DNA from: Bacteroidota bacterium
Lineage (GTDB): Bacteria > Bacteroidota > Bacteroidia > Chitinophagales > Chitinophagaceae
Length of the DNA: 64,000 nt
Assembly: GCA_018267705.1 (NCBI GenBank)
Contig: JAFDXX010000023.1
Coordinates: 365,769 to 429,768, forward strand
Reading direction: 5' to 3'
Under the pieces are notes generated by a model, which saw only the letters and a list, made by a program, of their open reading frames with translations, made no database searches and was not told where the DNA came from. The translations under genes and the position numbers were made by a program. Each line of letters opens with the position of its first letter. Position 1 is the stretch's first letter. This document shows positions 1,792 to 49,452 of the stretch, piece by piece.

Positions 1792-1869
1792 GTTTTATTA
1801 TTTGCTTAAATCAGAATAATGGAGATAGATTTAAAATATTAGGAAGAAATATTATTCTAATAAAAGTAA

Positions 1870-1910
1870 TTGATGATTAAATAACAGAACGTACAAGTGT
1901 GCGACGCAAC
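1870..1910 (+). promoter_or_regulatory. Copy A of dispersed 41-nt motif: TTG-N19-TACAAGTG-TGCGACGCAAC
   Basis: Sequence ttgatgattaaataacagaacgtacaagtgtgcgacgcaac. Same architecture and orientation as copies at 13607-13647, 34199-34159 (minus) and 48259-48299. Ends 62 nt before the GTG start at 1973. Confidence 0.5.
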
Positions 1911-1972
1911 CATAACTGAATAGAATTACAAATGTTAGTAACAAAAAATATTTAAAACTTAAATAATATAAA

Positions 1973-2839
1973 GTGCCAAGAATAATAAAATCGGGTCTCA
2001 TTCAACTATCTCTTCCTAAAACAGAAGGAGAAGGAACTATTGAAGAAATTAAAGAAGCAATGGTTCAAAAACATATCCCATTAATTGAAGAAGCAGGCAA
2101 ACAAGGTGTACAAATACTCTGCTTTCAAGAAATTTTCAATACGCCTTATTTCTGTCCGGGGCAAGATCCGGCATGGTATGCAAGTGCCGAAACAGTTCCG
2201 GGTCCTACCATTGAGCGTATGCAGCAGTATGCAAAGAAATATCAAATGGTAATTATTGTTCCGGTATATGAAAAAGAACAAGCCGGCGTTTTATACAACA
2301 CTGCTGCCGTAATTGATGCAGATGGAACTTATTTAGGTAAATACAGAAAAAATCATATTCCGCATACAGGTGGTTTTTGGGAAAAATATTTTTTTAAACC
2401 CGGAAACCTTGGCTATCCTGTATTCCAAACAAAATATGCAAAAGTTGGTGTATATATATGTTATGACAGACACTTTCCAGACGGAGCAAGATGTTTAGGC
2501 TTAAATGGAGCCGAAATAGTTTATAACCCATCTGCAACAACTGTTGGCCAATCTCAATATTTATGGAAATTAGAACAACCTGCACATGCTGTTGCCAATG
2601 GATATTTTATGGGGTGTATTAATAGAGTGGGAACAGAAAAACCTTGGAACTTAGGAAAATTTTATGGCACATCATATTTTGTAAACCCATTAGGACAAAT
2701 TATTAAAGAAGCAAGTGAAGACAACGATGAATTATTAGTAGCAGAATTTGATTTAGATTTAATTGAACAAATAAGAAGCAAATGGCAATTTTATAGAGAC
2801 AGAAGACCGGAAACCTATAATGAAATAACAAGATTATAA
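1973..2839 (+). CDS. Beta-ureidopropionase / N-carbamoyl-beta-alanine amidohydrolase (nitrilase superfamily)
   Basis: 288-aa ORF with GTG start. Carbon-nitrogen hydrolase pattern including ...CFQEIF..., ...YRKNHIP... and ...GVYICYDRHFPD... Confidence 0.85.
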   Translation: MPRIIKSGLIQLSLPKTEGEGTIEEIKEAMVQKHIPLIEEAGKQGVQILCFQEIFNTPYFCPGQDPAWYASAETVPGPTIERMQQYAKKYQMVIIVPVYEKEQAGVLYNTAAVIDADGTYLGKYRKNHIPHTGGFWEKYFFKPGNLGYPVFQTKYAKVGVYICYDRHFPDGARCLGLNGAEIVYNPSATTVGQSQYLWKLEQPAHAVANGYFMGCINRVGTEKPWNLGKFYGTSYFVNPLGQIIKEASEDNDELLVAEFDLDLIEQIRSKWQFYRDRRPETYNEITRL

Positions 2840-2910: not shown

Positions 2911-4251
2911 ATGATAAAAAATAATCGTCTAACTACAGAACAATACGAACATAACTTCAGCGATATTAAACCACCCTTTGAAACACAAGATGCAGCTTTA
3001 GTTGAAGCCAACCGTTGTTTATTTTGTTACGATGCTCCATGCACTAAAGCATGCCCAACAAGTATAGATGTACCAAAATTTATAAAACAAATAACCACAT
3101 ACAATGTAAAAGGTTCTGCCCACACTATTTTTCAATCAAATATTATGGGTGCAGGTTGCAGCAAAGTTTGTCCGGTAGAAAAATTATGTGAAGGGGCATG
3201 TGTATATAATTTAATGGAAGAGCCTCCTATTCCCATTGCAAAACTGCAACGTTATTCAACCGAAAAAGCCATAAATAATAATTGGCAATATTTTGAAAGA
3301 AAAAAATCAAACGGAAAAAAAGTAGCCGTTATTGGTGCAGGCCCCGCAGGTTTAAGCTGTGCCCATATTTTAACAAGAGAAGGTGTTGATGTTACCATAT
3401 ATGAAAAAGAAAATAAAGGCGGAGGATTAATGACATACGGAATTGCTGCTTACAAAGTAACACCACAGTTTTGTGAAGATGAAGTAAATTATATTTTAGG
3501 AATTGGTGGTATTGAAGTAAAATACAATCAAGAACTCGGCAAAAATATTTCTTTAGAAGAATTACAAAAAAATTACGATGCTATATATATAGCATTTGGT
3601 GTAGGGCTTGCCAATAAATTAAATATACCCGGAGAAGAGTTAGAAGGTGTAGAAGATGCCATAACATTTATTTATAATTTAAGAAGTAAAACATATAAAG
3701 AAATTTCTGTTGGAGATAAAGTTGCTGTAATTGGAATGGGTATGACAGCTATTGATGCTGCCACACAAGCCAAACGTTTAGGTGCCAAAGAAGTAACAAT
3801 GGTGTATAGAAGAACAGAAGCAGAAAAAAGTTGCACACAACATGAATTAGATATTGCAAGATTAGATGGTTGTGCAACAATTTGGCTTGCAGCACCAAAA
3901 GAAATTGTAGGCGAAAATGGTAAAGTAAAAGCATTAATCTGCGATGTTATGCAACTAGCCGAACCCGATGCAAAAGGCAAACCATTGCCTGTACCAACCG
4001 GCCAAACATTAACCCTAAACGTAGATATGATTATAAAAGCAACCGGGCAAAACCCTTACTCAAACATCATTTCAGCGTATGCAATTGATAATACAAAAGG
4101 AAAAATAAACATTCAGCAATCGGCAACAAATGTTTCAAAAGTTTTTGCAGGCGGAGATTGTGTAAATGGAGGTAAAGAAGTTGTTGATGCTGTGCAGGCT
4201 GGTAAAGATGGAGCTGCTTCCATACTATCATTCCTTCAAATTAAAAATTAA
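2911..4251 (+). CDS. preT: NAD-dependent dihydropyrimidine dehydrogenase subunit PreT (GltD-like, FeS + FAD/NAD binding)
   Basis: 446-aa ORF. N-terminal Cys clusters (CLFCYDAPCTKACP, CSKVCPVEKLCEGAC) are followed by GAGPAGL dinucleotide-binding motifs. Adjacent to preA. Confidence 0.85.
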   Translation: MIKNNRLTTEQYEHNFSDIKPPFETQDAALVEANRCLFCYDAPCTKACPTSIDVPKFIKQITTYNVKGSAHTIFQSNIMGAGCSKVCPVEKLCEGACVYNLMEEPPIPIAKLQRYSTEKAINNNWQYFERKKSNGKKVAVIGAGPAGLSCAHILTREGVDVTIYEKENKGGGLMTYGIAAYKVTPQFCEDEVNYILGIGGIEVKYNQELGKNISLEELQKNYDAIYIAFGVGLANKLNIPGEELEGVEDAITFIYNLRSKTYKEISVGDKVAVIGMGMTAIDAATQAKRLGAKEVTMVYRRTEAEKSCTQHELDIARLDGCATIWLAAPKEIVGENGKVKALICDVMQLAEPDAKGKPLPVPTGQTLTLNVDMIIKATGQNPYSNIISAYAIDNTKGKINIQQSATNVSKVFAGGDCVNGGKEVVDAVQAGKDGAASILSFLQIKN

Positions 4252-5641: not shown

Positions 5642-7195
5642 TTACTTATCAATTCCCTTTTTTATATCAAATTTTTTTCTGCGTATTTCTTGTACAGGTA
5701 CTTTTTGAATTTTACTTTCTAACCATGCAATAACATCTAAATACATAAACGATCGTGTTTCTATTGCATTACCTTCCAATTTTTCCAATTTTTCTTTTAA
5801 TAATTTAAATGAAGGAATAATTTTATGCGGAGATAATGAAAACGATTTTCTTATAAATCGAAATATTTCTTCTTCTACAACACTTAGGTTTTTCATTTTA
5901 GCCATAAATCTATAAACAGATTTTATTAAATATTCCAACAACTCATAATTGCCCAATTCAAAATGTGCAATTAAATGCAGCAAACGTGCATAGCATTGTA
6001 AATCAATTCTTAAATCATATTTCTGATTAATGATTTTGTTTAAGTATTCAATAGTTTTTTCGTTATTACCACTGCCAAAATATAAACAAGCTATTTTGTA
6101 ATAGAAGACTAACACTCTATGTTTATCTAAATGTAATTTATACGCTATAAGTTTTTCATTTATAATAGGCACTAATTGTAACCCTTCCGTAAATGTTCCT
6201 TCTAAAAAATGTTTATTAATTTTTGCAATATGTAAATACACAAATGTTTGAATGCGTACATTATCATTGGTTGCTGTACTCTGCGATTTTGAAAATACTT
6301 CAAACTGTTTTAGTGTTGTTTCAAATTTATCGTAATTGTTTAAATCAAAATGTGCACTTAATAAATTGTGTAACCCTTTTATATATTGGCTTGCTTCAAC
6401 CGTTTTCATTAAAGTATATTCTTCAAACAAATCAACCCACTTTTGAGTATATCGGTAATACATTAATAAATCTTGCAATATAAATCCATACCAACAAAAA
6501 GATTGATATAAATATAATTTTTCGTAAAAGGTTAGTGTTTGAAAATTATACGATGGTAAATTGGTCTCAAAAAATATTCTTACTGCGTGTACATCTCGTT
6601 CATCTCTTGCATGACCATGTTTTATATACCAACTATACAATTCTAATGAAAGGTTGGATAGTTTATTGGTAAGTGAAAGATGTGTAGTAATTGCATCAGA
6701 ATCTTTACTCAATTGCTCGGCACGGTTTTCTAAACTTCGTGTAATATGTAAGGCCTCAATTTTTTTTTCAAACAATATAGCTTGTAATTGATAAGTAATT
6801 TGATGATGTTGTTTTGCCGTTTCTTTTAATTTATCTAATACTTTTAAACTTTGTAAATACAACCCTTTATTGTATAATATTCTTGCAAAGTCCATCTGTT
6901 CATGCAATTGAATATCAATATTTTCTTTGTCTTCCAATACTCTAAGGCTCGATAGTATTTGTTTATACAAGTGAGCCCGCATATTAGAAAGTTGTTGCTT
7001 TAAAATATCTTTATTCTTTTTTAATAATAAAGTCTCATCATATTCAGTTGCTTTGTCTAACGCATCAAATAACTGTACAATTTTCAAATTTTCTCCACCC
7101 GAATTTCTTTGAACATATAGTTTAAAATTTCGTTTTTCGGCTTTAGTAAGCGACTTTATTAACTGAAAAAGTGTATCAGTACTTCTGTTGGGCAT
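5642..7195 (-). CDS. Hypothetical all-alpha (TPR-like?) cytoplasmic protein, 517 aa
   Basis: Long uninterrupted ORF with ATG start. No signal peptide and no motif I recognise. Helix-rich, repeat-like composition. Confidence 0.7.
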   Translation of the reverse strand: MPNRSTDTLFQLIKSLTKAEKRNFKLYVQRNSGGENLKIVQLFDALDKATEYDETLLLKKNKDILKQQLSNMRAHLYKQILSSLRVLEDKENIDIQLHEQMDFARILYNKGLYLQSLKVLDKLKETAKQHHQITYQLQAILFEKKIEALHITRSLENRAEQLSKDSDAITTHLSLTNKLSNLSLELYSWYIKHGHARDERDVHAVRIFFETNLPSYNFQTLTFYEKLYLYQSFCWYGFILQDLLMYYRYTQKWVDLFEEYTLMKTVEASQYIKGLHNLLSAHFDLNNYDKFETTLKQFEVFSKSQSTATNDNVRIQTFVYLHIAKINKHFLEGTFTEGLQLVPIINEKLIAYKLHLDKHRVLVFYYKIACLYFGSGNNEKTIEYLNKIINQKYDLRIDLQCYARLLHLIAHFELGNYELLEYLIKSVYRFMAKMKNLSVVEEEIFRFIRKSFSLSPHKIIPSFKLLKEKLEKLEGNAIETRSFMYLDVIAWLESKIQKVPVQEIRRKKFDIKKGIDK

Positions 7196-7383: not shown

Positions 7384-8547
7384 ATGAATAAAAATAAAGT
7401 GCACATTTTTGATACCACACTTCGTGATGGCGAACAAGTGCCCGGCTGCAAGTTAAACACCAAAGAAAAAATTGAATTGGCATTAGTATTAGAAAACTTA
7501 GGTGTTGATATTATTGAAGCAGGTTTTCCTATCTCCTCTCCCGGCGATTTTGAAAGTGTAACCGAAATTTCTAAAATTATAAAAAATGCTTCCATTTGTG
7601 GATTAAGCCGTGCAGTACAAAAAGATATTGAAACTGCTGCTGCTGCTTTAAAACATGCAAAGCATCCACGTATTCACACAGGTATTGGCACTTCCGATAT
7701 TCATATTAAAGGAAAATTTAATTCTACCAGAGAAGATATTTTGCAACGTGCCATACAATGTGTAAAGTGGGCAAAAAATTTTGTTGATGATGTTGAGTTT
7801 TATGCAGAAGATGCCGGCAGAACAGATAACGATTATTTAGCAAGTGTTGTAGAAAGCGTAATTAAAGCAGGTGCAACAGTTGTAAATATTCCCGATACAA
7901 CAGGTTACTGTTTACCACACCAATACGGAGAAAAAATTGCTTATTTAATTAATCATGTTCCTAATATCGATAAAGCAATTATTTCTTGTCATTGCCATAA
8001 CGATTTAGGTTTAGCAACTGCCAACTCAATTGCAGGTGTAATTGCAGGAGCAAGGCAAATTGAATGTACCATTAATGGTTTAGGAGAACGTGCAGGCAAT
8101 ACATCTTTAGAAGAAGTTGTAATGATTATTAAACAACATAAAGATTTAGGATTTTATACAAATATCAACTCTAAACAATTAAACCCAATGAGCCGTTTGG
8201 TGAGTGATACAATGCGTATGCCTGTTCAACCAAACAAAGCTATTGTTGGTGCAAATGCTTTCAGTCATTCATCGGGCATTCATCAAGATGGATTTTTAAA
8301 AAGTGCTATTACATATGAAATAATTAATCCCACCGAAGTTGGTGCAGATACCAGCAAAATAGTTTTAACTGCACGCAGTGGAAGAAGTGCATTGGCATTT
8401 CGTTTAAAAAATTTAGGTTATGATTTTAATAGAAATGAGGTAGATAATTTATATGAGAAATTCTTACAAATTGCAGATGCTAAAAAAGAAGTATTAGATG
8501 AAGATCTTCATGCAATGGCAAAAGTATTTGAAACAATTGAAGCATAA
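7384..8547 (+). CDS. leuA: 2-isopropylmalate synthase, short form (387 aa, no C-terminal regulatory domain)
   Basis: N-terminus [16 protein letters not shown]..., plus [13 protein letters not shown] and HSSGIHQDG motifs of the HMGL-like/LeuA family. First gene of the leuCDB cluster. Confidence 0.85.
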
Positions 8548-8623
8548 AATTATTTAGATATTGTAGAATGAATTTTAAATAATATCATTCATTACACATT
8601 CAAAATATAAAATTCAAAACAAA

Positions 8624-13368: not shown

Positions 13369-13467
13369 ATGGTATCAAGCAAGTTCAATAAGGCAATCAT
13401 CAGCAACATCGCAATTATTATTGTCATTATTATTCCTGCACTGCACGGAGGTGTAAGTATCATGTAA
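13369..13467 (+). CDS. 32-codon Ile/Val-rich leader peptide (candidate ilv attenuator leader)
   Basis: Translation MVSSKFNKAIISNIAIIIVIIIPALHGGVSIM*. It has 10 Ile and 3 Val; codons 16-22 are IIIVIII. Below the ORF-track size cutoff. Sits between a consensus promoter and a strong intrinsic terminator, upstream of ilvD. Confidence 0.65.
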   Translation: MVSSKFNKAIISNIAIIIVIIIPALHGGVSIM

Positions 13468-13488
13468 AAAATAACTTGTTATAACATG

Positions 13489-13517
13489 AAACCCGCCTCC
13501 AAAAAGGCGGGTTTTTT
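13489..13517 (+). terminator. Intrinsic terminator (attenuator terminator) upstream of ilvD
   Basis: aaacccgcc-tccaaaaa-ggcgggttt followed by ttt(a)ttt. The stem is 9 bp with a GC-rich core, followed by a U-run. Confidence 0.8.
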
Positions 13518-13583
13518 ATTTGTTATTACTATAAAAAATAAAAAAAAATATGAACCCAACTTTAACACATTAATGAAACACCT

Positions 13584-13647
13584 GTTGCGTCGCACTCTTC
13601 AACACATTGTTCAATATTGAACAAAACGTACAAGTGAGTGACACAAC
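13584..13647 (+). repeat. 64-nt imperfect palindrome containing copy B of the dispersed motif plus an inverted copy of its GC-rich core
   Basis: Left arm gttgcgtcgcactctt (13584-13599) is the exact reverse complement of aagagtgcgacgcaac found at 34174-34159. The centre holds a perfect 18-bp palindrome ttgttcaatattgaacaa (13607-13624). Right arm is aagtgagtgacacaac (13632-13647). The arms pair at 13 of 16 positions. Confidence 0.6.
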
Positions 13648-13690
13648 AAAAGCTAAATAAAATTACATAAGCTAAGTACAAAAAAATAAA

Positions 13691-15373
13691 ATGACAGAAT
13701 TAAACAAATACAGCAAAACACTAACACAAGATGCAACACAACCTGCAGCACAAGCAATGTATTATGCCATTGGTTTTAAAGAAGAAGATTTTTCAAAACC
13801 ACAAGTGGGCATTGTAAGCATGGGTTGGGATGGCAACCCTTGTAACATGCATCTAAACGATTTAGCAGCAAAAGTGAAAAAGAGTGTAAATAAAACAGGT
13901 TTATTAGGTTTAAACTTTTACACCATTGGCGTAAGCGATGGAATTAGTATGGGAACAGATGGTATGCGTTATAGTTTAGTAAGCAGAGATGTAATTGCCG
14001 ATAGCATTGAAACTAATGCAGGTGCTCAATATTACGATGCAATAATTGGTATTCCCGGCTGCGATAAAAATATGCCGGGTACTATTATGGCAATGGGAAG
14101 ATTAAATCGTCCGTCCATAATGTTGTATGGCGGCACTATTGCACCAGGGCATTATAAAGGCGAAGATTTAAATATAGTTTCTGCATTTGAAGCATTAGGA
14201 CAAAAAATTGCAGGCAACTTATCTGAAGGAGATTTCAAAGGAATCATTCAACATGCTTGTCCGGGTGCCGGTGCATGCGGTGGCATGTACACAGCAAATA
14301 CAATGGCTTCGGCCATTGAAGCATTGGGTATGAGTTTGCCATATTCATCATCCAACCCCGCATTAAGTAAAGAAAAACTAAAAGAATGTAATACTGTTGG
14401 TAAAGCAATAAAAACATTATTACAAAAAGATATTAAACCAAAAGATATTATGACACGTAAAGCATTTGAAAATGCAATTACAGTTGTAATGGTTTTGGGT
14501 GGAAGCACCAATGCTGTATTACATTTAATTGCTATGGCTAAAAGTGTAGGTATTGAATTAACGCAAGATGATTTTCAAAAAATAAGTAATAAAACACCCT
14601 TGCTTGCAGACTTTAAACCCAGCGGTAAATATTTAATGGAAGATTTGCATAAACATGGTGGCGTACCTGCAGTAATGAAATATTTATTAAGCAAAAAAAT
14701 GTTGCATGGAGATTGTTTAACCGTAACTGGAAAAACCATGAAACAAAATTTGAAAAAAGCACCCAATTTAAATTTTGAAATTCAAGATATTATTCACCCC
14801 ATAGAAAATCCTTTAAAAGCAACAGGGCATTTACAAATTCTTTACGGCAATCTTGCAACAGGCGGAAGTGTTGCAAAAATTACAGGAAAAGAAGGTGAAC
14901 GTTTTGAAGGAACAGCAAGAGTATTTGATGGCGAACATGATTTTATTAAAGGCATTCAAAATAAAAGAGTACATGCAGGAGATGTTGTTGTTATTAGAAA
15001 CATTGGTCCTAAAGGAGCACCTGGAATGCCCGAAATGCTTAAACCTACAGGAGCTTTAATTGGTGCAGGTTTGGGCAAAACTGTTGCATTAATTACCGAT
15101 GGAAGATTTAGCGGTGGTACACATGGTTTTGTAGTTGGGCATATTACACCTGAAGCATACAATGGAGGCTTAATAGGTTTAGTAGAAGATAATGATATTA
15201 TTGAAATTGATGCCGTAAAAAATACAATTACATTAAAAGTAAGTAACGAAATAATTGCACAACGCAAAGCTAATTGGAAACAACCTACCTTAAAAGCAAC
15301 TAACGGTGTTTTATACAAATATGCAAAATTAGTAAAAACTGCAGCCGAAGGCTGTGTAACAGATGAAGACTAA
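13691..15373 (+). CDS. ilvD: Dihydroxy-acid dehydratase
   Basis: 560 aa. ILVD/EDD family motifs ([29 protein letters not shown]). Confidence 0.95.
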
Positions 15374-34095: not shown

Positions 34096-34158
34096 TGTAT
34101 GTTCCGTATTTTGTTTTTAAAATTTTTGTTACCGGCTGTTGTGCTTGTGGCATCAACT

Positions 34159-34199
34159 GTTGCGTCGCACTCTTATACTTTCTGCACTACATGCAGCAA
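34159..34199 (-). promoter_or_regulatory. Copy C of dispersed motif: TTG-N19-TATAAGAG-TGCGACGCAAC
   Basis: Minus-strand sequence ttgctgcatgtagtgcagaaagtataagagtgcgacgcaac in the rpsD-rpoA intergenic region. Ends 63 nt upstream of the rpoA ATG. Confidence 0.5.
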
Positions 34200-34202
34200 T
34201 TA

Positions 34203-46755: not shown

Positions 46756-48168
46756 CTAAACCGCATTTCCAAAAAACAAATAACACAATAATATAGCAGT
46801 TATTATACCTACTAAATCTGCCAATAACATAGTACCAATAGAGTATCTTGTATTCTTAATACCCACTGCACCAAAATAAACAGCTACCACATAAAAAGTT
46901 GTATCAGAAGAGCCTTGTAATATGCTGGCTAATTTTCCTGCAAAAGAATCTGGGCCGTATGCTTTCATAGTATCAAACATCATCCCTCTGGCACCACTTC
47001 CACTTAAAGGTTTCATTAAAGCAGTGGGTAAGCCATCAACAAATCTTGTATCAAAACCCATAATTCCAAATAAGTTTTTCATTCCTACTAATAATACATC
47101 AAAACTTCCGCTAGTTCTTAATAAACTAATGGCAACTAATATTCCAACCACATAAGGAATAATTTTAATACTTGTTTCAAACCCACCTTTAGCTCCATCA
47201 ACAAAAGCATCAAACACATCAATTTTTTTATAAATAGCAGCTCCCATAATAATAGCTGCAAAAATCCATAATATTAATCCGTTACTTAATAAACCTGAAA
47301 AAACTTTCATGGCATCGGGAGAAAGTGAATGAAGATAAACTACCAACAATGCAATTAATGCACTTGCCCCACCAATCCACGCCAACACAACAGGTTGAAA
47401 GATTTTTATTTTTTGTTTGAAAGAAACAATAAACAATGCAGCCATTGTTGCTGCAAAAGTTGCAATCATACAAGGAATAAAAATATCGGTTGGGCTTGCT
47501 GCTTTTACCGATGCTCTTGCTGCAATAACTGTTACCGGTACTAATGTTAAACCCGATGCATGCAAACACAAAAACATTATTTGTGCATTAGATGCTTTGG
47601 TTTTATCGGTATTTAGTTCTTGCATACTTTCCATGGCTTTAATACCAAAAGGAGTAGCAGCATTATCAAGATTTAAAAGATTAGCAGAAAAATTCATAAT
47701 CATGTGCCCCATTGCCGGATGCCCTTTGGGAATTTCAGGAAAAAGTTTTGAAAAAAATGGTCCAACAATTCTTGATAAAAACCGAATACCTCCTGCTCTT
47801 TCGGCAATACTCATAAAACCCATAAACAATGCCATAATACCAATTAAACCCAAACAAATTTCAACAGCACTTTTGCAAGTGGCAATAACACCATCGGCAG
47901 ATTGAACAGAATAACTTATATACTTGCCTTGTGCGGTTTTGCTATAAATAATATCGCCTTGTTTATATTCTTTATTTTGAGAAATTTTATTAATTATTGT
48001 TGCAGATAGTGCAGCACTATCAATAGCTTTGGTATAAGCCGTATCGCCTTGTTTGCCAACAACCATTCTACTGTATATTTCTTTTCCTCCGTTAAAAAAA
48101 GCAATTTTACAAGTAGCCACTACAATTGCTATTAAAATAAAGGCACTCCATATTCTGCTTAAAGCCAT
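46756..48168 (-). CDS. Fused SpmA/SpmB-like nucleoside-recognition (Gate) domain membrane protein
   Basis: 470 aa, polytopic, with two Gate-like halves. Confidence 0.7.
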   Translation of the reverse strand: MALSRIWSAFILIAIVVATCKIAFFNGGKEIYSRMVVGKQGDTAYTKAIDSAALSATIINKISQNKEYKQGDIIYSKTAQGKYISYSVQSADGVIATCKSAVEICLGLIGIMALFMGFMSIAERAGGIRFLSRIVGPFFSKLFPEIPKGHPAMGHMIMNFSANLLNLDNAATPFGIKAMESMQELNTDKTKASNAQIMFLCLHASGLTLVPVTVIAARASVKAASPTDIFIPCMIATFAATMAALFIVSFKQKIKIFQPVVLAWIGGASALIALLVVYLHSLSPDAMKVFSGLLSNGLILWIFAAIIMGAAIYKKIDVFDAFVDGAKGGFETSIKIIPYVVGILVAISLLRTSGSFDVLLVGMKNLFGIMGFDTRFVDGLPTALMKPLSGSGARGMMFDTMKAYGPDSFAGKLASILQGSSDTTFYVVAVYFGAVGIKNTRYSIGTMLLADLVGIITAILLCYLFFGNAV

Positions 48169-48245: not shown

Positions 48246-48258
48246 CAGCCGAAATAAA

Positions 48259-48299
48259 ATGTTCAATAAAGAACAAAACGTATAAGTGAGTGACACAAC
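48259..48299 (+). promoter_or_regulatory. Copy D of dispersed motif: aTG-N19-TATAAGTG-AGTGACACAAC
   Basis: Sequence atgttcaataaagaacaaaacgtataagtgagtgacacaac, identical to copy B (13607-13647) at 37 of 41 positions. Ends 55 nt upstream of the ychF ATG. Confidence 0.5.
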
Positions 48300-48354
48300 A
48301 ACAGACTATTAAAGAGGAACTGTTAAGTGCCTATCTTAAAAAATAAAAATTATT

Positions 48355-49452
48355 ATGAGTTTAAAAGCAGGAATTGTAGGGTTGCCCAATGTTGGTAAAT
48401 CAACTTTATTTAATGCAGTAAGTAATAGTGCTAAAGCACAAGCAAGTAATTATAGGTTTTGTACCATTGAGCCTAATACTGGTTTGGTGAATGTGCCTGA
48501 TGAACGTTTAAACAAATTGGCAGAATTAGTTAAACCTAATAGAATTGTACCTACACAATTAGAAATAGTTGATATTGCAGGTTTAGTAAAAGGTGCAAGT
48601 AAAGGAGAAGGTTTAGGAAATAAATTTTTAGGAAATATTAGAGAAGTAGATGCCATAATTCATGTAATACGTTGTTTTGAAGACGAAAATGTTTTGCGTG
48701 ATGAAGGTGCCATTAATCCGATGGGTGATAAAGATATTATTGATACCGAATTACAATTAAAAGATTTAGAAAGTGTTGAAAAAAAATTGCAACGTGCCGA
48801 AAAAATGGCAAAAACAGATCCTAAAGCAAAAATTGAGTTAGAAATTTTAAACAACTGTAAACTGCATTTAGAAGCAGGAAAAAATATTAGAAGTTTAGGA
48901 TTAAGTAAAGAAGAAAAAATGGCCGTTGCCGATTTATTTTTATTAACCGATAAATCTGTTTTATATGTTGCCAATGTTGATGAAGCCAGTATGCACACAG
49001 GCAATAAATATTCTGAAGCATTAATTAACGGCGTAAAAAATGAAGGTGCAGAAGTAATTGTAATGTGTAATAATATTGAAGCTCAAATTGCAGAATTAGA
49101 AAATGCAGATGATAAGCAAATGTTTATGGATGAATATAAAATGACGCAGCCTGCACTAAACAGAATGATAAAAAGCACTTACAAACTTTTACAATTAGAA
49201 ACCTATTTTACGGCAGGTGTACAAGAAGTAAGAGCATGGACAATTCATAACGGATGGAAAGCACCGCAAGCTGCAAGCGTAATTCATACAGATTTTGAAA
49301 AAGGTTTTATTAAAGCAGAAGTTATTTCGTATGAAGATTATGTAAAATACGGAAGTGAAGCAGCAGTAAGAGATAACGGACGTTTAAGAATTGAAGGAAA
49401 AGAATACATAGTAAAAGATGGCGATATTATGCACTTTAGGTTTAATGTATAG
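48355..49452 (+). CDS. ychF: Redox-regulated ribosome-binding ATPase YchF
   Basis: 365 aa. GIVGLPNVGKSTLFNA P-loop and C-terminal TGS-like domain ending DGDIMHFRFNV. Confidence 0.95.
   Translation: MSLKAGIVGLPNVGKSTLFNAVSNSAKAQASNYRFCTIEPNTGLVNVPDERLNKLAELVKPNRIVPTQLEIVDIAGLVKGASKGEGLGNKFLGNIREVDAIIHVIRCFEDENVLRDEGAINPMGDKDIIDTELQLKDLESVEKKLQRAEKMAKTDPKAKIELEILNNCKLHLEAGKNIRSLGLSKEEKMAVADLFLLTDKSVLYVANVDEASMHTGNKYSEALINGVKNEGAEVIVMCNNIEAQIAELENADDKQMFMDEYKMTQPALNRMIKSTYKLLQLETYFTAGVQEVRAWTIHNGWKAPQAASVIHTDFEKGFIKAEVISYEDYVKYGSEAAVRDNGRLRIEGKEYIVKDGDIMHFRFNV

Follow-up and report, generated by a model that had tools for sequence, protein, structure and literature searches.

A dispersed intergenic repeat with two core types in Chitinophagaceae and phages, likened to REP/BIME elements

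We describe a dispersed repeat of ~85 bp, present in five copies in a 64,000-nt stretch of a Chitinophagaceae genome (Bacteroidota bacterium, assembly GCA_018267705.1, contig JAFDXX010000023.1, positions 365,769 to 429,768; hereafter the window) and in further copies in related genomes and in phages. The repeat is centered on a near-invariant core of 20 bp, GTAYAAGWGNGYGACRCAAC, which occurs in two discrete types. It is probably an old, slowly turning-over intergenic repeat of the Chitinophagaceae and of phages, similar to repetitive extragenic palindromes (REP) and bacterial interspersed mosaic elements (BIME), with the core as a putative recognition site. A preliminary description, made from the window alone, had reported four copies (A to D) of a 41-nt motif, TTG-N19-TAYAAGWG followed by a GC-rich 11-mer, all facing the downstream gene and one of them lying in a 64-nt palindrome. 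It had offered three explanations: a second promoter class, an RNA element, or a repeat similar to REP or to miniature inverted-repeat transposable elements (MITE).

The core was searched for as an exact pattern in one genome per species, covering 185,579 species, and was retrieved from at least 120 loci. Every named organism belongs to the Chitinophagaceae or Chitinophagales, and the rest are unclassified Bacteroidota metagenome-assembled genomes (MAGs). The named carriers among the matches listed are Segetibacter, Ferruginibacter, Lacibacter, Niabella, Niastella, Flavisolibacter, Flavihumibacter, Foetidibacter, Deminuibacter, Pinibacter, Parasediminibacterium and Ilyomonas. The counts of gene position and orientation given below rest on these at least 120 core-bearing loci, together with the window, and several genomes supplied many 8-kb blocks. 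Labels such as L012, L121 or L209 denote stretches from other genomes or phages.

The repeat unit and its two core types

In 154 core-anchored copies, the information content was raised from about -23 to +58 relative to the core. The motif family of the preliminary description is real, only its unit is ~85 bp (roughly -24 to +58) and not 41 nt. On the upstream side of the unit lies a box of loose conservation, G-Y-T-G-A-A-T-A.., with G at -19 and T at -17 ahead of A-A-T-A.., followed by the core, which consists of a 5' tag, GTAYAAGWG, and a mini-palindrome. Past the core come RRNNGYT at +21 to +27, the box once more, GCYGG at +44 to +48 and an A-run at +51 to +57, with the A-rich tail motif reading GCYGG..CAWAAAA. 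In the consensus of a gapped alignment, AAGCUGAAUAGAAAU flanks the core on both sides. The flanks belong to the unit, because a profile of the downstream 44 nt alone matched mostly core-adjacent places (14 of 17 matches, in independent data). As independent repeats, the flank modules were not enriched in the window. The TTG, on which the earlier motif leaned, is not a feature of the family: its three positions hold T in 33%, T in 38% (background 28%) and G in 64% of copies, and the G at -19 alone is conserved.

The core type was determined for 156 distinct copies. Core positions 12 and 16 hold C and G in 92 copies and T and A in 64, without a single mixed state. Position 10 (T or A) tracks these two positions with four exceptions, and position 8 is also linked to the type (type 1: A 61, T 31; type 2: T 59, A 7; p = 6e-13). 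Type 1 reads TGCG-A-CGCA, a 9-bp inverted repeat, and type 2 reads GTG-A-CAC. Mutual information over all column pairs singled out solely positions 10, 12 and 16, the remainder being local register noise. The core type showed no association with the orientation class of the copies (p = 0.60). A core variant ending in ...GCAAG for ...GCAAC was recurrent (L013, L077, L086, L089, L172, L174 and others), and often stands head-to-head with a canonical copy at a wide spacing; possibly, it represents a third sub-type.

Single copies of the repeat show no sign of a conserved structure. Their RNA folds had no common structure, and their folding was no better than that of shuffled sequences (mean z of -0.58 for the plus, sense strand and +0.11 for the minus, antisense strand). 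RNAalifold returned an empty consensus structure for 152 copies on both strands, and covariation was confined to positions 12 and 16, 3 nt apart. The Rfam search proposed in the preliminary description gave no match at gathering score over the whole window, and in E-value mode two copies matched nothing but noise from generic terminators and miRNA hairpins. At its two ends the consensus reads AAAAGCTG... and ...GGTACAAAAAA, which are not complementary in inverted orientation, so the unit has no terminal inverted repeats. Two further candidates were rejected. A small open reading frame (ORF) in the gccATGAAAAAC downstream parts had inconsistent reading frames. The two boxes are poor candidates for target-site duplicates left by an insertion, as their similarity within copies (5.97) was barely higher than between copies (5.40).

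Gene context and orientation

The element is strictly intergenic. By crude ORF calls, 139 of the 158 copies placed against genes lie between genes, and the 19 apparently inside copies fall in spurious ORFs of 70-106 aa or within ~100 nt of an over-extended ORF start. For the 134 copies located in other genomes, the tail-side gene ran in the direction of the copy in 67 cases and against it in 67. For the 122 fully flanked copies, the classes were 44 sense co-directional, 36 antisense co-directional, 25 convergent and 17 divergent, which is roughly the expectation for random orientation. The preliminary description had all copies facing the downstream gene; this does not hold for the relatives, nor for a fifth copy in the window, B', which is antisense to ilvD. 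The co-orientation of the four copies A to D is a small-sample coincidence. A general role as promoter or 5' untranslated region (5'-UTR) is largely refuted by the orientation of the copies. As for the signs by which the preliminary description would have recognized a plain repeat, random orientation was found, but copies within genes were not.

The copies are nevertheless polar with respect to the ends of genes. The tail is nearer to a gene than the head in 85 of the 122 fully flanked copies and the head is nearer in 37 (p = 1.6e-5), with median gaps of 39 and 103 nt, respectively. Nine of the ten opposed neighbors with the smallest gaps were confirmed by Pfam, among them GAPDH, an HMGL-like synthase, Omp85 and FtsW, and from the core end it is 37-41 nt to their stop codons, which come directly past the tail. 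Close pairs of copies are head-to-head in 17 of 18 cases and never tail-to-tail, a pairing that follows from the tail side facing the nearer gene. All six pairs with a spacer of at most 53 nt, including B'/B in the window, combine a type 1 with a type 2 core. Such mixed pairing would prevent long perfect palindromes.

In some cases, a gene or small operon is enclosed by a pair of inward-facing copies, with the 5' copy in sense and the 3' copy in antisense orientation, as in L020 (1684-6897) and at rpoA-rplQ in L149, L172, L174 and L189. Bracketing was seen for 14 of the 121 genes with at least one copy, ~2.5x a rough expectation, an excess that is confounded by element-rich genomes.

Copies in phages

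The exact core was also present in 36 stretches of IMG/VR phage contigs, with the full architecture of the unit, and PHROG searches indicated that the core-bearing stretches are genuine phage modules. In L206 (8643-8662) and the identical L207, L210 and L216, a sense copy lies between NinB and NinG/replication genes. In a second phage family, antisense copies directly follow the gene for the large terminase or the portal protein, in the spacer before the next gene; in L209 (copies at 3925-3944 and 7542-7561), a copy occupies a whole 77-nt spacer. These copies were retained among relatives whose portal proteins are 83% identical. Further full copies were found in L218, L236, L239 and L241. The repeat acts neither as a promoter nor as a terminator, because it is tolerated in both orientations within phage late operons.

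Relatives of the L206 phage that lack the element were sought for the insertion boundaries, and only identical phages were retrieved. A BLAST search of the ilvD dimer against the GenBank plasmid and phage collections gave no match.

A distinct hairpin repeat, CCCGAACTTGTTTCGGG, occurs twice in the spacer after the portal gene in L243, L244 and L245 (~4030-4200) and in L246 (~4100-4150). One of its copies is joined to core nucleotides 1-12 (GTACAAGAGTGC|CCCGAAAC..), an indication that the 5' tag can join up with a different module, one that is a true palindrome.

Persistence and loss of copies

The picture is one of long-lived copies that are gained and lost slowly, with a core far better kept than the flanks. 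Core identity is ~90% within a genome and ~88% between genomes. For the upstream flanks, identity is 47% within a genome, 44% between genomes and 37% after shuffling, and for the downstream flanks it is 58%, 52% and 36%. The highest flank identity within a genome was 88% over 42 nt and near-identical copies were absent. As no pair exceeds this value, there was no recent burst.

Between genomes, seven pairs of copies coincide at orthologous sites in the same orientation, where approximately one would be expected if they were independent (a rough estimate). The 3' end of GAPDH carries a copy in both Segetibacter L001 (type 1) and Deminuibacter L102 (type 2). A survey of 80 metagenomic rpoA loci, with RpoA identities of 84-99%, found the element between rpsD and rpoA in ~13 of them, clade by clade, with most clades lacking it. 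Copy C of the window, which lies in this spacer, is common to the closest relatives L121 and L122 and is missing at most other rpoA loci. Cores at this site are decaying in L186, L188 and L183. In L165 (~1100-1150) and L123 (~30-90), the core is split in its central GCGACGC by an unrelated insert of 21-27 nt, and in L187 (412-451) the downstream part and tail are present and the core is missing. These split or core-less copies may have arisen by decay, or they may be traces left by cleavage or recombination in the middle of the core.

The copies in the window

A profile hidden Markov model, trained solely on copies from other genomes, detected exactly five places in the window (E = 3e-14 to 5e-8; next match E = 1.5), which has a G+C content of 31.5% (Table 1). 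This corresponds to about one copy per 13 kb. The four copies of the preliminary description were recovered with the same positions and sequences, including the 37 of 41 identical positions between B and D, the 11-mer TGCGACGCAAC common to A and C, and the distances of 62, 43, 63 and 55 nt from the core end to the start codon for A to D. The identities of the flanking genes were borne out by Pfam: amidohydrolase and CN-hydrolase for A, leuB and ilvD for B, rpsD and rpoA for C, and a Gate-domain protein and ychF for D. A recurrence beyond chance had also been claimed rightly, with seven matches (at most 3 mismatches) to a 19-mer pattern against 0.27 expected and none of 100 shuffles reaching seven. 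Two of the seven are weak (3 mismatches) and were not recovered by the profile search.

Table 1. Repeat copies in the window, their flanking genes and the leader upstream of ilvD
Feature	Position	Strand	Description	Evidence
Genes beside copy A	412-1791; 1973-2839		amidohydrolase gene; CN-hydrolase gene	Pfam
Copy A, full element	1867-1953	+	type-1 core 1891-1910, GTACAAGTGTGCGACGCAAC	nhmmer E = 3e-14, profile positions 4-85
ilv attenuator-like leader (context, outside the repeat)	13369-13515	+	32-codon Ile/Val-rich ORF 13369-13467, MVSSKFNKAIISNIAIIIVIIIPALHGGVSIM; terminator hairpin 13488-13515
Copy B', full inverted element	13541-13619	-	antisense to ilvD	nhmmer E = 1.1e-8, profile positions 29-79
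Core of copy B'	13603-13584	-	type 1, GTTGAAGAGTGCGACGCAAC, 5' tag altered; downstream part and tail leftward to ~13541
Perfect palindrome	13606-13623		ttgttcaatattgaacaa; head common to B' and B, apex of the 64-nt hairpin
Copy B, full element	13604-13690	+	type-2 core 13628-13647, GTACAAGTGAGTGACACAAC	nhmmer E = 1.5e-12
Copy C, full element	34117-34202	-	type-1 core 34178-34159, GTATAAGAGTGCGACGCAAC; rpsD-rpoA spacer	nhmmer E = 5.5e-14
Genes beside copy D	46756-48168 (-); 48355-49452		divergent Gate-domain gene; ychF	Pfam
Copy D, atypical tail	48256-48342	+	type-2 core 48280-48299, GTATAAGTGAGTGACACAAC	nhmmer E = 5.2e-8, profile positions 3-68

The 64-nt palindrome upstream of ilvD is present, but what had been taken for its left arm is a fifth complete copy, B', and the palindrome is a head-to-head dimer of B' and B. 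A repeat search delimited the arms to 13583-13615 and 13616-13648, 33 nt each and 73% complementary. As previously noted, the 16-mer of copy C recurs at 13584-13599 as its exact reverse complement, and the 18 bp at the apex are a perfect palindrome. The reported pairing of 13 out of 16 positions between the arms is correct if one G-U pair is counted; by Watson-Crick pairs alone it is 12 out of 16. The RNA fold of 13575-13700 has a free energy of -22.8 kcal/mol (z = -3.37), and the tail of copy B reaches the ilvD start codon at 13691.

Upstream of the dimer, the leader ORF and terminator look like a classical ilv attenuator, here in a Bacteroidota genome. A terminator scan found one terminator against 0.1 expected, with an 11-bp stem and a T-run, and Rfam returned only sub-threshold matches to Thr, Phe and Leu leaders, all to the terminator part. 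The dimer is most simply a passenger within the leader. It would be transcribed downstream of the attenuator without supplying a bypass promoter, and it may contribute a stable hairpin located 43 nt upstream of the ilvD ATG. In L012, an orthologous copy is located 44 nt upstream of ilvD, with a type 1 core where the window has type 2, and both copies end in ACAAAAAAATAAAATG. The IlvD of the window is encoded identically on MAG contigs of GCA_018267835.1 and GCA_039811205.1. These strains were discarded as a comparison set, as their spacer is also identical and thus uninformative. L012 also has a copy upstream of leuC, which is absent from the window; there, the 76-nt spacer upstream of leuC holds a small hairpin (8566-8600, gaatgaat...attcattc).

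Comparison with known repeats

The GTAG-tagged REP, BIME and REPIN sequences of Enterobacteria and Pseudomonas are extragenic high-copy repeats (PMC3733652, PMC6006769), and the BIMEs of Escherichia coli contain heterodimers of Y and Z REPs (PMC3733652). The element described here is likewise short, high-copy and extragenic, lies in either orientation and often just past stop codons, and persists vertically. It has a 5' tag that may correspond to that of REPs (GTAC.. here, GTAG in REPs) and is followed by a GC-rich inverted repeat, and its dimers are predominantly head-to-head and preferentially of two sequence types, as with Y and Z in BIMEs. REP tags are unpaired tetranucleotides, GTAG or CGTC; the invariant GTAYAAGWG begins with GTAC and not GTAG, and the reverse strand of type 1 contains CGTC. 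There are also clear differences. The inverted repeat has only 3-4 bp around A14 and forms no significant hairpin, whereas a REP stem has 5-13 bp. Furthermore, the element has flanks of ~65 bp that are loosely conserved, are not palindromic and contain an internal direct repeat, and its core spans a family of genera, not one species or genus, with copies also in phages.

A second likeness is to the dRS3 repeats and mosaic elements (NIME) of Neisseria, members of the CGTC-1 family (PMC3733652). In both cases, a conserved element of ~20 bp is embedded in variable, mosaic intergenic sequence, with a link to phages and without a dedicated transposase flanking the repeats. However, dRS3 is itself an inverted repeat, paired around units, and here a single core lies inside a polar unit in which no integration junctions were seen. 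MITEs such as Correia, and the BOX and ERIC elements, are similarly intergenic, ~80-150 bp long, modular and co-transcribable with their neighbors. In contrast to these, the element lacks terminal inverted repeats, evident target-site duplications and near-identical copies, and its conservation is central rather than terminal. The third explanation of the preliminary description, a REP/MITE-like repeat, came closest of the three, although the element is neither a textbook REP, as the monomer is no palindrome, nor a textbook MITE.

The four copies A to D can be read as TTG-N19-TA, at the proper spacing and facing a gene, similar to the Bacteroidota sigma-A promoter (-33 TTG, -7 TAnnTTTG). The differences are the unconserved TTG, a -7 box of TAYAAGWG without TTTG, the random orientation and an all-or-none conservation over 20 bp. 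DNA uptake sequences (DUS/USS) occur at ~1/kb and frequently within genes, compared to ~1/13 kb and none in genes here. RNA-guided transcription by dCas12f was rejected as a related system, having few targets, all co-oriented with genes (PMC13472631).

The searched literature held no description of such a repeat in Chitinophagaceae, and no relevant match to the sequence string. From these comparisons, the element appears to resemble REP/BIME, and none of the families described in Rfam or in the searched literature matches it. We therefore liken it to these repeats and do not file it as a member.

Interpretation and alternative explanations

Cores that are intact in old copies, together with two discrete core types, point to recognition by a conserved factor. 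The core would be kept intact as the putative recognition site of this trans-acting factor. The most likely candidate is a protein that binds or processes DNA, comparable to RAYT, gyrase and IHF in the case of REP and BIME. Individual copies would be mostly neutral passengers for the adjacent genes.

Several observations weigh against reading the element as a REP/BIME-like repeat with such a partner. No trans-acting factor turned up, and all-versus-all clustering of 756 ORFs from ~900 kb of flanks revealed no enriched transposase, HUH or RAYT-like family, only diverse housekeeping families. The monomer is no palindrome and has no significant fold, and is thus without the hairpin that defines REPs. 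The lack of near-identical copies argues against recent transposition. Some copies may have been recruited as 5' leaders, given that copies in sense orientation stop 43-60 nt short of start codons and that ACAAAAAAATAAAATG is retained by the ilvD copy in two genera. The ~13 copies between rpsD and rpoA are all in sense orientation, which reflects either shared ancestry or a constraint on orientation in that operon. The restriction to Chitinophagaceae/Chitinophagales holds for the at least 120 matches listed and not beyond, and the genes in relatives were called crudely, as greedy longest ORFs.

A different explanation is a host architectural or regulatory DNA site, selected locus by locus and bound by a host protein, for example gyrase, a nucleoid protein or a regulator that is dimeric and has two specificities. 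The orientation of such a site would not matter for its action, for instance in supercoiling or domain insulation, and phages would acquire copies of it to make use of the host factor. This agrees with a core conserved at orthologous sites despite flank divergence, with orientation-independent and strictly intergenic placement, with phage copies persisting across ~17% portal-protein divergence, and with the short inverted repeat of the core and its symmetric variants. However, the site is patchy, and many lineages show decay or loss of copies with nothing obvious in their place. A tolerant dimeric binder should also allow the mixed forms GCGACAC and GTGACGC, neither of which occurred in 156 copies, and no factor is known. 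We consider per-locus selection of a host site rather unlikely.

The promoter proposed in the preliminary description would use TTG-N19-TAYAAGWG as -33 and -7 boxes, followed by a conserved initially transcribed region. The four copies A to D face the next gene at 43-63 nt, in relatives sense copies cluster 43-60 nt upstream of start codons, and in phages copies are found ahead of replication genes, all of which a promoter would explain. It would not explain the 67:67 orientation, the 25 of 122 copies between convergent genes, the antisense copies within the terL/portal operons of phages, an unconserved -33 TTG with a non-canonical -7 box, or a family that is all-or-none where a graded consensus would be expected. 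Moreover, at ilvD it would bypass the attenuator. A second promoter class is thus highly improbable. The proposed RNA element, located in the 5'-UTR or between cistrons, would serve as a signal for processing, stability or translation, with inverted 3' copies permitting 5'-3' pairing or RNase III cleavage. Tails that abut start or stop codons, the genes bracketed by inward-facing copies and the long hairpins of head-to-head dimers (z = -3.37 at ilvD) are in line with such a role, as is the A-rich tail, which suits translation initiation in Bacteroidota. Against it stand monomers without structure or covariation on either strand, random orientation relative to transcription with copies between convergent genes, and the lack of an Rfam match; the surplus of bracketed genes is modest, with element-rich genomes as a confounder. 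Overall, an RNA element is very unlikely.

Equally doubtful is a recombination or attachment site, or the target of an RNA-guided system, with the two types corresponding to two enzymes or guides. The dRS3 repeats, which are the integration targets of Nf prophages, offer a precedent for dispersed att-like cores, and the core in phage genomes, the two rpsD-rpoA copies with 21-27 nt inserted exactly in the central GCGACGC and the two discrete types without intermediates would be compatible with it. Yet the phage copies lie inside operons and not beside integrases in the stretches examined, the split cores number just two, and no associated recombinase or guide RNA was found. In addition, the known Bacteroidota systems for RNA-guided transcription act on a few targets, each of which lies upstream of a gene and points in its direction (PMC13472631).

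Much is known about the high-copy intergenic repeats of Proteobacteria, and very little has been described for those of Bacteroidota. The repeat combines features in an unusual way: a core found across many genera and phages, two co-varying forms, polarity toward gene ends, and old copies with intact cores. This combination suggests a conserved trans-acting partner, whose identification could reveal a RAYT-like system in Bacteroidota or a new chromosome-organizing factor. A bolder proposal, to which we give a low probability, is that the two cores, instead of being remnants of a selfish repeat, are an ancient, family-wide DNA signal, read by one or two dedicated conserved factors (protein or guide RNA) and marking transcription-unit boundaries in host and phage. 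If true, the signal could be a topological or insulator site, or a mark for self or recombination, which phages copied to exploit or evade the machinery.

Independently of its function, the element is a marker for Chitinophagaceae DNA and for linking phages to hosts in metagenomes. We advise masking it during annotation and in searches for promoters or RNA motifs, as small samples of copies mimic a promoter.

Other repeats in intergenic spacers

In relatives without the element, other lineage-specific palindromic or tandem repeats, for example agtgaatagtgagtagtgaat... and aatcaatgaatcaatgaatcaatga, were observed at the corresponding site, in the rpsD-rpoA spacers of L127, L131, L132 and L138, and in L012 at 6945-6990. 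Intergenic spacers in Chitinophagales seem to be generally prone to colonization by repeats.

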